From the NCBI GenBank assembly GCA_020833005.1, contig JAJHRD010000002.1:70287-134286 (forward strand): a DNA stretch of 64,000 nt, written 5' to 3'. Made by a program: the position numbers and the translations under genes. Shown in pieces: positions 20,464-51,895 of this stretch (within the stretch, counting starts at the first letter, position 1; each line of letters starts with the position of its first letter). Origin of the DNA: Thermoproteota archaeon (GTDB lineage: Archaea > Thermoproteota > Methanomethylicia > Culexarchaeales > Culexarchaeaceae). The notes beneath the pieces are model-generated. The model did no database searches. It saw nothing but the letters and a program-made list of their open reading frames with translations, and was not told the origin of the DNA.

Positions 20464-20537
20464 GGGCCGGTAGCTCAGCCTGGAAGAGCATCCGCTTGGC
20501 ATGCGGGGGGTCGCGGGTTCAAATCCCGCCCGGTCCA
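20464..20537 (+). tRNA. tRNA-Ala (GGC)
   Basis: Acceptor GGGCCGG/CCGGTCC with the G3:U70 identity pair. Anticodon loop ttGGCat, T-arm GCGGG-TTCAAAT-CCCGC. Confidence 0.9.
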
Positions 20538-20651
20538 CTACAGTTAAAAATGTTTATGTAATAGATTTGTTGAGATAATTGTGAAATGATGTGAAGAGGG
20601 TCAATGAGGGGGGAACCGATGATTTACGCTGGAAACACTGATCATATAATG

Positions 20652-28611: not shown

Positions 28612-29643
28612 ATGTTGAAAACCATTGAGAAGAAAATTCCGAAAAAAGTGAAGAAGCAAAAAGTCTTAGAAGAACTAATGGAACTAATGAAGTCCAATGA
28701 GATAATAGCCATAGCATCTCTAAAAGGGTTGAGAGCTCGTCAATTACAGGAAATACGTAAAATATTGAGAAACAATGGTATCTACTTGAAGGTAGCTAAA
28801 AACACTCTGTTCAAAAAAGCAATCGAAGAATGTTCAAATGATCTGAAGAACATAGAGGCTTTAGAGAAATACTTGTCAGAACAAAATGCATTCATATTTT
28901 CAAATGGAAACCCATTTGAACTTGCACTAATACTGGAAAAGAATAAGGTATATATGGAAGCAAAGGCAGGGGATATTGCACAAAATGACATAATAGTGCC
29001 AGCTGGAAATACTGGAATGACTCCTGGACCAATAATAAGTAAATTCAATGCATTAAAAATCCCAGTGAAAATTGAGGAAGGATCTATATGGATAACTAAA
29101 GATACCATAGTTGCCAAGAAGGGGGATATAATAAGCCCAGACTTAGCAGATATACTTAAAAGGTTGAATATAAAACCCATCGAGGTGAAGATGAGGATAA
29201 AAGCATTATACTTTAATGGAAGAATACTTGGAGAAGAAGAACTTAAACTAAATATCGAAGAATACCACCAAATGATAAAAGATGCCGTTAGAAACGCATA
29301 CGTAATAGCCATAGACGCTGCACTCCCAATACCAGAAGTAATGGTTCAAGTAATAACTAAAGCTGCAAGAATTGCGAGGAAAATTGCAGCAGAAATCGCT
29401 ACACCAGAACCGGGAATTATAAAGGAAACATTGGCAATCGCAAATAGTAGGGCATTAATGTTAGCTATGAAGCTCATGCAAATAAATCCAGAATTAAAAA
29501 TTATTGAGGGAATAACAATGCCTGCAGCAGCCAGTGCAGCACCATCAGCTGAAGCAAAACCAAAGGAGGAAAAGAAGAAGGAAGAGAAGGAGGAGAAGGA
29601 GGAGGAAGAGATAGCAGAAGGACTAGCATCACTATTCGGATAA
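28612..29643 (+). CDS. rpl10: 50S ribosomal stalk protein P0 (L10)
   Basis: 343 aa ending in the acidic stalk tail ...EEKKKEEKEEKEEEEIAEGLASLFG*. Confidence 0.9.
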   Translation: MLKTIEKKIPKKVKKQKVLEELMELMKSNEIIAIASLKGLRARQLQEIRKILRNNGIYLKVAKNTLFKKAIEECSNDLKNIEALEKYLSEQNAFIFSNGNPFELALILEKNKVYMEAKAGDIAQNDIIVPAGNTGMTPGPIISKFNALKIPVKIEEGSIWITKDTIVAKKGDIISPDLADILKRLNIKPIEVKMRIKALYFNGRILGEEELKLNIEEYHQMIKDAVRNAYVIAIDAALPIPEVMVQVITKAARIARKIAAEIATPEPGIIKETLAIANSRALMLAMKLMQINPELKIIEGITMPAAASAAPSAEAKPKEEKKKEEKEEKEEEEIAEGLASLFG

Positions 29644-29653
29644 ACAACTTTAA
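29514..29653 (+). repeat. 140-bp perfect direct repeat, copy 1 (P0 C-terminal tail + stop + 10 nt of 3' flank)
   Basis: Base-by-base identity with 29894-30033. The flanks diverge immediately outside. Confidence 0.95.
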
Positions 29654-29684
29654 ATATACGTTTTATAACTCTTTTAATCGCATA

Positions 29685-30023
29685 TTGGAGGTGATTAGTA
29701 TAGAATACGTATATGCAAGCCTCCTCTTACACTACGCTAAAAAGCCAATTGAAGAAAAGAGCTTAAGAAGGATACTAGAGGCAGCTGGCATTGAAGTGGA
29801 TGATGTCAGATTGAAAGCTATGGTGGCAGCTTTAAAGGAAGTCAATATAGATGAAGCAATAAGTGCAGCCTCAACAATCACCCCAACAGTAGCAACAATG
29901 CCTGCAGCAGCCAGTGCAGCACCATCAGCTGAAGCAAAACCAAAGGAGGAAAAGAAGAAGGAAGAGAAGGAGGAGAAGGAGGAGGAAGAGATAGCAGAAG
30001 GACTAGCATCACTATTCGGATAA
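29685..30023 (+). CDS. rpl12: 50S ribosomal stalk protein P1 (L12e)
   Basis: EYVYASLLLHYAKKPI... plus the same acidic tail as P0. The start codon is uncertain: TTG 29685, GTG 29691, or possibly AUA 29700 (see findings). Confidence 0.9.
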   Translation: MEVISIEYVYASLLLHYAKKPIEEKSLRRILEAAGIEVDDVRLKAMVAALKEVNIDEAISAASTITPTVATMPAAASAAPSAEAKPKEEKKKEEKEEKEEEEIAEGLASLFG

Positions 30024-30033
30024 ACAACTTTAA
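29894..30033 (+). repeat. 140-bp perfect direct repeat, copy 2 (P1 C-terminal tail + stop + 10 nt of 3' flank)
   Basis: Identical to 29514-29653. Confidence 0.95.
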
Positions 30034-51671: not shown

Positions 51672-51745
51672 GGGCCGGTAGCTCAGCCTGGAAGAGCATC
51701 CGCCTCGCACGCGGGAGGTCGCGGGTTCAAATCCCGCCCGGTCCA
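51672..51745 (+). tRNA. tRNA-Ala (CGC)
   Basis: Same body as tRNA-Ala(GGC), including G3:U70. Anticodon loop ctCGCac. Confidence 0.9.
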
Positions 51746-51895
51746 CTAAACTTGAACCTAATAGACCCCTAAAGTATAGATGACTATTTATAGTGTCATC
51801 ATAGGTCATTTGTAAGAAATGATGCACTGAAAATGATGTTAACAGGATTTAAAGGCATTAAATAGTTGTGCATTTATAGGCGATATTCTCCAGCT

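Follow-up and report, generated by a model that had tools for sequence, protein, structure and literature searches.

Gene conversion and concerted evolution of paralogous genes are well established in prokaryotes, for example in tufA/tufB and in the rRNA operons. In eukaryotes, the genes for the ribosomal stalk proteins P0, P1 and P2 are dispersed, and their acidic tails (…EESDDDMGFGLFD) are conserved as protein only. A 1989 paper by Shimmin, Ramirez, Matheson and Dennis (J Mol Evol 29:448) reportedly described a partial copy of the P1 C-terminus in P0, with intraspecies similarity at the protein level. Here, we describe a perfect direct repeat that covers the 3' ends of the adjacent P0 and P1 genes of a Thermoproteota archaeon. 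It lies in a 64,000-nt stretch of contig JAJHRD010000002.1 (positions 70,287 to 134,286), hereafter referred to as the window (WIN among the locus labels). Comparison with related genomes indicates that these tails are very probably kept identical by gene conversion.

Two sets of published results frame this locus. The archaeal stalk has the architecture aP0(aP1)2(aP1)2(aP1)2, and the C-terminal domain of its tails, which is approximately 20 residues long and unstructured, is the factor-binding element that recruits translational GTPases (PMC4267659). A genome-wide catalogue of concerted evolution lists 26 genes, 7 of which are archaeal: mtmB, mtmC, mtbB, mtbC, mtrA, glnB and a histone gene. 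The pipeline behind this catalogue seeks whole-gene paralogs (Wang & Chen 2018, PMC6053082).

The direct repeat at the 3' ends of P0 and P1

The genes and repeat elements are as follows. All coordinates are positions in the window, and L numbers (e.g., L001) are locus labels for the contigs with which it was compared.

28612..29643, + strand: P0/aL10 (uL10), 343 aa, with L10 domain, P0 insertion domain, helical spine and shared acidic tail (PF00466, PF17777, PF00428)
29700..30023, + strand: P1/aL12, start judged by homology; IEYVYASLLLH... aligns from residue 1 of Pyrococcus horikoshii aP1
29514..29653, + strand: repeat copy 1, with the last 42 codons of P0 and the third position of the preceding codon, the TAA stop (29641-29643) and 10 nt of the P0-P1 spacer
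29894..30033, + strand: repeat copy 2, with the last 42 codons of P1, the TAA stop (30021-30023) and 10 nt of 3' flank
29654..29893, + strand: unique 240-nt inter-repeat segment, with the remaining P1 promoter and Shine-Dalgarno region, the P1 N-terminal dimerisation domain and the hinge

The two copies (29514-29653 and 29894-30033) match at 140/140 bases with a start-to-start spacing of 380 nt, and identity drops to background directly beyond both ends. Each copy has the same codon phase in its own open reading frame (ORF), its first base being a third codon position, and each encodes a threonine followed by MPAAASAAPSAEAKPKEEKKKEEKEEKEEEEIAEGLASLFG (42 codons), the TAA stop and then the non-coding 10 nt ACAACTTTAA. 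Under the codon usage of this genome, independent codon choice would give the same protein a nucleotide identity of approximately 80%, and all 42 codons would agree with a probability of approximately 10^-14. This means that the 140-nt identity far exceeds what chance or protein-level constraint would produce. An earlier reading of this stretch, made from its letters without database searches (the sequence-only reading), had claimed a perfect 140-nt direct repeat with identity beyond the protein-level expectation, and both claims are borne out. Its account of the content of the repeat, with 42 codons, TAA and 10 non-coding nucleotides, also holds, but the peptide that it quoted is one residue short, at 41; the missing codon is the ACA (Thr) just before it.

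The unique segment and one repeat copy together make up 380 nt, which is the unit that recombination between the repeats would delete. Besides tRNA genes, no long repeat other than that of the P0/P1 tails occurs in the 64 kb. The window contains nine tRNA genes, among which a tRNA-Ala pair (GGC and CGC anticodons, 20464-20538 and 51672-51746, 92% identical including some flank) is the source of the sole other long repeats.

The two edges of the tract coincide with features of the genes. Its 5' edge is the point where P0 (at the end of the helical spine) and P1 (in the Ala/Pro hinge) stop being homologous. Its 3' edge lies within the P0-P1 spacer, a few bases past the stop and inside the region of the transcription factor B recognition element (BRE) and TATA box of a putative P1 promoter.

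Concerted change of the tails in relatives of the window

In the loci L002-L007, where P0 is 94% identical to that of the window, we found a perfect repeat of 139 nt with the same 380-nt spacing. Over the 42 tail codons, the window differs from L002/L005 by nine substitutions, seven of which are synonymous and two non-synonymous. All nine (9/9) are at matching positions in P0 and P1, with zero differences between the paralogs within either genome. The rate of synonymous substitution (dS) between the window and L002/L005 is 0.31 in the tail, 0.28-0.31 in the P0 body (299 codons) and 0.45 in the P1 N-terminal domain. As the dS of the tail equals that of the P0 body, the tail is not under unusual constraint at the nucleotide level.

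The same pattern is seen between strains. Three strain pairs that are 0.5-0.9% divergent contain four single-nucleotide polymorphisms (SNPs) in the repeat, and 4/4 are present in both copies, exactly 380 nt apart:

Window versus L132: 48 differences in 7,032 nt; one repeat SNP, at 29590 and 29970 (380 nt apart), in both copies
L002 versus L003: 36 differences in 7,029 nt; two repeat SNPs, both synonymous, in both copies
L005 versus L006: 61 differences in 7,029 nt; one repeat SNP, in both copies
29590 (copy 1) and 29970 (copy 2), + strand: strain-level SNP, G in the window and A in the 99% relatives L132/L133, changing Glu to Lys

As all four strain SNPs are common to both copies, homogenisation is fast relative to a divergence of 0.5-0.9%. 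In JGI sample 3300042910, a window-type strain (99% identical in P0; L133) and the 94%-type species (L139) co-occur on separate long contigs.

To describe the repeat beyond these species, approximately 90 Thermoproteota-related genomes and targeted loci were surveyed. The P0/P1 3' repeat is found in ten species-level lineages, and it is complete and perfect in nine of them, with lengths of 140 nt in the window, 139 in L002, 136 in L008, 135 in L010, 134 in L088, 127 in L012, 122 in L014, 120 in L009 and 95 in L015. In the tenth lineage (L135), the copies are identical over at least 94 nt, as far as the contig runs. These lineages form one clade in a rough neighbour-joining tree of the P0 bodies, spanning Methanomethylicia/Methanosuratincolia and Culexarchaeia. 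Identity between the P0 bodies of this converting clade is only 53-65%. Over the last 51 nt, the best-conserved part of the tails, the paralogs are 100% identical within genomes, whereas identity between genomes is 71-92% (L012 is left out of this matrix, as its two-codon C-terminal extension puts it out of register). The shared flank after the stop is 3-19 nt long and lineage-specific (ACAACTTTAA, ACAATCTTTAAATATACGT, ACAACCTTTAAATATA, ACAAACAACCTTTAAAT, ACTCGAAATA, GCACTAAAA or AGT). As this flank is common to both copies within a genome and different between lineages, conversion covers non-coding DNA as well. The repeat thus recurs in at least nine species-level lineages, compared with the five species that Wang & Chen (2018) require for recurrence.

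One lineage nested in the clade departs from this pattern. L013, the sister of L014, has a tail identity of 72% over the last 60 nt and a diverged P0 hinge; by its sequence, it is a lineage that has escaped from concerted evolution. A different kind of departure is seen in L011 (JAVZJF010000202.1, 2,148 nt), where the P0 tail is one 15-nt K/E unit shorter than the P1 tail. This indel is the only paralog difference seen within the converting clade. L011 is labelled Candidatus Anstonellales, yet it is 99.2% identical over 2,046 nt to the locus L008 of a Methanomethylicia metagenome-assembled genome (MAG), and it is probably mis-binned.

Outside the clade, P0 and P1 tails are similar in a looser sense. 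In Desulfurococcales and other Thermoprotei, the tail DNA of the two genes is 63-83% identical, with 92-93% in L034 (Desulfurococcales; 3514/3936). The L034 tails are mosaic, with a near-perfect block of approximately 75 nt followed by five synonymous differences in the last 16 nt. As broad controls we used forty diverse archaeal metagenome loci among the matches listed, with P0 26-44% identical to the query. Their tail identity is 20-85%, with short high-identity patches in L105 and L099; in L105, identity is 98% over the last 45 nt, and the stop context is not common to both copies. A shared flank after the stop was found in none of these forty control loci among the matches listed. The patches in L034, L105 and L099 suggest that sporadic short conversions have occurred elsewhere in Archaea.

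Taken together, the sequences argue strongly that gene conversion keeps the 3' tails of P0 and P1 identical. Four hallmarks of concerted evolution are seen here: paralogs that are more similar than orthologs, identity at synonymous and non-coding sites, co-segregating substitutions, and a sharp tract with mosaics and boundary shifts. The sequence-only reading had proposed recent or ongoing conversion between P0 and P1, and this is supported by the within- and between-genome identities, the dS values, the co-segregating substitutions and the lineage-specific flank. The comparison of within- and between-genome tail identity that it had suggested gave 100% within the ten lineages (in L135 to the contig end) and 71-92% between them. 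It had also named tails of related genomes that differ at synonymous sites as the pattern that would speak against conversion; the opposite is found, except in the escaped L013.

In the mechanism that we propose, the 3' ends of P0 and P1 are direct repeats that are continually homogenised by non-reciprocal homologous recombination, either within one chromosome or between genome copies. A mutation in either copy is erased or copied to the other, such that the tails evolve as one sequence, while between lineages they diverge at the normal neutral rate. RadA-type recombination or synthesis-dependent strand annealing (SDSA) may carry out the exchange, and the tract boundaries have drifted among lineages. 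Such exchange may be of benefit by holding the seven factor-binding tails of the aP0(aP1)6 stalk to a single sequence, and it might rescue a P0 tail under weak constraint from decay.

Three other explanations of the identity were weighed. The first is an assembly artefact, in which the identity or the duplication itself was made by the assembler, through bubble-popping in a collapsed repeat or through mis-joining. The repeat clearly troubles assemblers. L142 ends at the last base of copy 1, L143 inside copy 1, L141 approximately 15 nt into copy 2 and L135 inside copy 2, and L134 (GCA_038888655.1) has a 100-N gap inside the P0 tail that makes its L10 "partial". L001 (JGI 3300005860, also in NCBI; L001/L136) contains the P0 upstream region, one repeat copy and the P1 downstream flank with no P1 gene. 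Its length falls short of that of its sibling contigs by exactly 380 bp, and over the remaining 6,649 positions it matches L002, an ENA k141 assembly in which P1 is present, without a single difference. Given this identity to the P1-bearing L002 and the other contigs that are broken at the repeat, L001 probably arose by assembly collapse, although a small real subpopulation with the 380-bp deletion (a P1-less stalk with the P0 tail only) may exist. The suggestion in the sequence-only reading of a deletion hotspot that would fuse P0 to the P1 tail is thus half supported: the product of the expected length is found in L001, whereas a real deletion is less likely than a collapse. However, as an explanation of the identity, an artefact is very improbable. 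The same architecture, each time with its own sequence, occurs in more than ten species-level lineages from independent samples, groups and assemblers, and JGI, ENA k141 and NCBI MAG assemblies agree, with k=141 exceeding the repeat length. Bubble-popping cannot yield 9/9 shared substitutions or lineage-specific shared flanks, and L011 illustrates that assemblies can report differences between the copies. In the window itself both copies are present, and the objection of assembly collapse, which the sequence-only reading had raised, does not apply there.

A second explanation is purifying selection at the nucleotide level, in which a shared RNA element (a structure, a regulator site or a terminator) forbids synonymous change. 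This would fit the run of identity past the stop into non-coding sequence that overlaps a conserved TATA-like motif. However, orthologous tails and the remainder of the gene diverge synonymously at equal speed (dS 0.31 vs 0.31), the shared flank after the stop varies in length and sequence between lineages, and archaea with the same protein tail show no such DNA identity, which leaves this explanation with hardly any probability. An RNA structure was considered separately and rejected: the minimum free energy of the repeat is -16.1, compared with -21.2 ± 3.2 for shuffles (z = +1.6), i.e., the repeat is less structured than the shuffled controls. Finally, the tail could have been duplicated or transferred just once, and recently, in this genome, with conversion playing no continuing part. 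This would explain the zero divergence between the copies, but it is just as implausible, since perfect identity in every lineage of the converting clade, despite P0 bodies of 53-65% identity and tails that differ between lineages, and strain SNPs that are present in both copies imply many successive homogenisation events rather than one.

Several points weigh against gene conversion as we describe it. De Bruijn assemblers may pop bubbles in repeats shorter than k, such that rare single-copy differences were possibly erased and the figure of 100% is slightly flattering. The analysis is from assemblies, and it is from these that the conversion events are deduced. The argument on directionality (see below) uses few boundary features. 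The 15-nt indel in L011 may mean that the copies are truly not homogenised there, or that the K/E stretch, which is internally repetitive, was mis-assembled. Finally, the advantage of homogenisation is a proposal only, and many archaea do without any P0 tail.

The stalk genes, their spacer and the start of P1

The assignment of the two genes follows from their domains and their surroundings. Pfam finds Ribosomal_L10, RL10P_insert and, weakly, the Ribosomal_60s tail in the ORF 28612-29643, and Ribosomal_60s (PF00428), i.e., P1/aL12, in the ORF ending at 30023. P1 has the dimerisation domain at its N-terminus, with residues 1-57 aligned to aP1 of P. horikoshii (3A1Y chain A, E=1.3e-14); 3A1Y is the solved aP0(aP1)6 stalk structure of that species. 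The gene order is Spt5-L11-L1-P0-P1-AlaRS, with the neighbours L11 and L1 identified by Pfam (PF03946/PF00298 and PF00687). The locus thus has the features of an archaeal stalk operon, with the L10 rRNA-binding domain and the archaeal/eukaryotic insertion domain in P0, and the order L11-L1-L10-L12. The closest proteins to P0 are L10s from Methanomethylicia ("Verstraetearchaeota") MAGs, at 99, 94, 93, 83, 66-58 and 53% identity. The tail carries the sequence motif EEEIAEGLASLFG, and on the strength of this motif it is predicted to bind aEF1A/aEF2/aIF5B, the function described for stalk tails (PMC4267659).

A tail on P0 is not universal. In most Bathyarchaeia and Thermofilaceae and in many other archaea, P0 (approximately 280-296 aa) is without the acidic C-terminal tail, and the adjacent P1 has one. 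The P0 tail is likewise absent and the P1 tail kept in the Methanomethyliaceae-like loci L023/L029/L045/L051. These tail-less P0 loci were drawn from L018-L087 and L091-L131. The P0 tail thus seems dispensable in many lineages.

The spacer between the two genes contains two conserved motifs:

29649..29656, + strand: TTTAAATA, archaeal TATA-box-like motif, just past the P0 stop; position conserved upstream of P1 in all lineages examined
29687..29695, + strand: GGAGGTGAT, full-length Shine-Dalgarno sequence, 4 nt upstream of ATA 29700

The layout is the same in converting and non-converting lineages: the stop, 3-19 nt, TTTAAATA, approximately 22 nt, GGAGGTGAT, 4 nt and the P1 N-terminus. Repeat copy 1 ends within TTTAAATA, in the middle of the motif (TTTAA/ATA). 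The spacer of the window (29644-29699) is identical to that of L002 at 54/56 positions, despite a dS of approximately 0.3. From this conservation only, we infer an internal promoter and a strong Shine-Dalgarno sequence for P1, which is plausible given the six copies of P1 per P0.

The start of P1 was called differently by different means. The ORF list gives TTG 29685 and gene callers give GTG 29691, whereas the position homologous to the initial Met is ATA 29700-29702. In the window, both the in-frame GTG 29691 and the TTG 29685 are inside the Shine-Dalgarno sequence. The aP1 start position is ATG (MEYVYA...) in 45 distinct archaeal genes, and ATA (12) or ATC (7) in 19 lineages, which belong to the clade of the window, the sister group with tail-less P0 and Desulfurococcales (loci: window, L002, L008-L015, L023, L025, L027, L029, L030, L034, L045, L082, L088, L132 and L135). 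A full GG(A/G)GGTGAT Shine-Dalgarno sequence always precedes the ATA/ATC codon, at a distance of 4-5 nt. In L025, L027, L030, L034 and L082, there is an in-frame stop two to three codons upstream of the ATA/ATC, with no intervening ATG, GTG or TTG. As no such codon lies between that stop and the ATA/ATC, the latter seems to be the initiator, and aP1 appears to initiate at ATA/ATC behind a strong Shine-Dalgarno sequence. A literature search found no report of an ATA/ATC start of aP1.

The ends of the tract also bear on the direction of transfer. The TATA-containing sequence is native to the spacer, and it is also found 3' of P1, over 19 nt in L008, 16 in L088 and 17 in L010; spacer-native sequence at this place points to transfer from P0 to P1. 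Conversely, P0 in the lineage of the window has "TMPA" at the 5' end of the tract, whereas elsewhere "TMPA" is found in P1 only and P0 has a 3-residue gap. This points to a transfer from P1 to P0 that extended the tract. These few boundary characters suggest that transfer has occurred in both directions.

A compositional difference accompanies the tails. In 9/9 converting lineages, a larger fraction of the Lys and Glu codons ends in G in the tail than in the P0 body (mean difference +0.27), and the corresponding excess is approximately +0.05 in 8 non-converting lineages; in the window, the values are 0.68 for the tail (29514-29640) vs 0.32 for the P0 body. This excess, which is confounded by base composition and by phylogenetic non-independence, would fit GC-biased conversion as well as avoidance of A-runs.

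A reading that joins all these observations is tentative, and we consider it rather unlikely as a whole. In it, homogenisation would be more than a by-product of homology: an otherwise dispensable P0 tail would owe to it both its survival over class-level time and its identity to the six P1 tails, with bidirectional tracts that also carry the BRE/TATA of P1 to a place 3' of that gene. After conversion ceases, the P0 tail would drift (as in L013) or be lost (as in the sister lineages, Bathyarchaeia and Thermofilaceae). The expression of aP1 from its own internal promoter, with a near-cognate AUA/AUC start behind a 9-nt Shine-Dalgarno sequence, would be a dedicated control of stalk stoichiometry.

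Comparison with described cases of concerted evolution

The locus provides a natural record of gene conversion in uncultured archaea, with a short, sharply bounded tract that is neutral between lineages and concerted within them. Public metagenomes are enough to reveal where the tract ends, the direction of transfer and an escape event, and such data may be used to estimate the rate of conversion relative to the mutation rate and the minimal tract lengths in Thermoproteota-related archaea. There is also a practical consequence. Short-read assemblers delete P1, which is a ribosomal marker, truncate P0 or break contigs at the repeat, and in MAGs of this group the aP1 marker may be missing in error or L10 may appear as "partial".

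No paper that describes conversion between the P0 and P1 genes of archaea came up in a literature search, which did not extend to the 1989-94 Dennis/Matheson papers. The window agrees with the module reportedly described by Shimmin and colleagues in that its P0 includes part of the P1 C-terminus. What goes beyond that description is the DNA identity including the flank, the neutral divergence of orthologs, the co-segregating SNPs, the persistence across a clade and the lineage that escaped. The eukaryotic P0/P1/P2 proteins resemble the archaeal pair in having the same functional module on the anchor and stalk proteins, and the metagenome scan contained three eukaryote-type P0 tails among the matches listed (L125, L127 and L128).

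P0 and P1 are not among the seven archaeal genes in the catalogue of Wang & Chen (2018, PMC6053082), probably because they share only a short module, and they add a segmental, module-level case to catalogues that list only whole-gene paralogs. Like the catalogued cases (PMC6053082), the P0 and P1 tails are more similar between paralogs than between orthologs, including at synonymous sites, the pattern is recurrent over many species and long-lasting, and the proteins are subunits of one complex. Unlike those cases, P0 and P1 share only a 3' module of 95-140 nt between genes of unrelated length (343 aa vs approximately 108 aa), and their repeats are in tandem, 380 nt apart, with a tract that crosses the stop into a promoter-like spacer. 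The P0/P1 tail is thus a segmental, tandem, clade-wide and very clean example of a known process rather than new biology.

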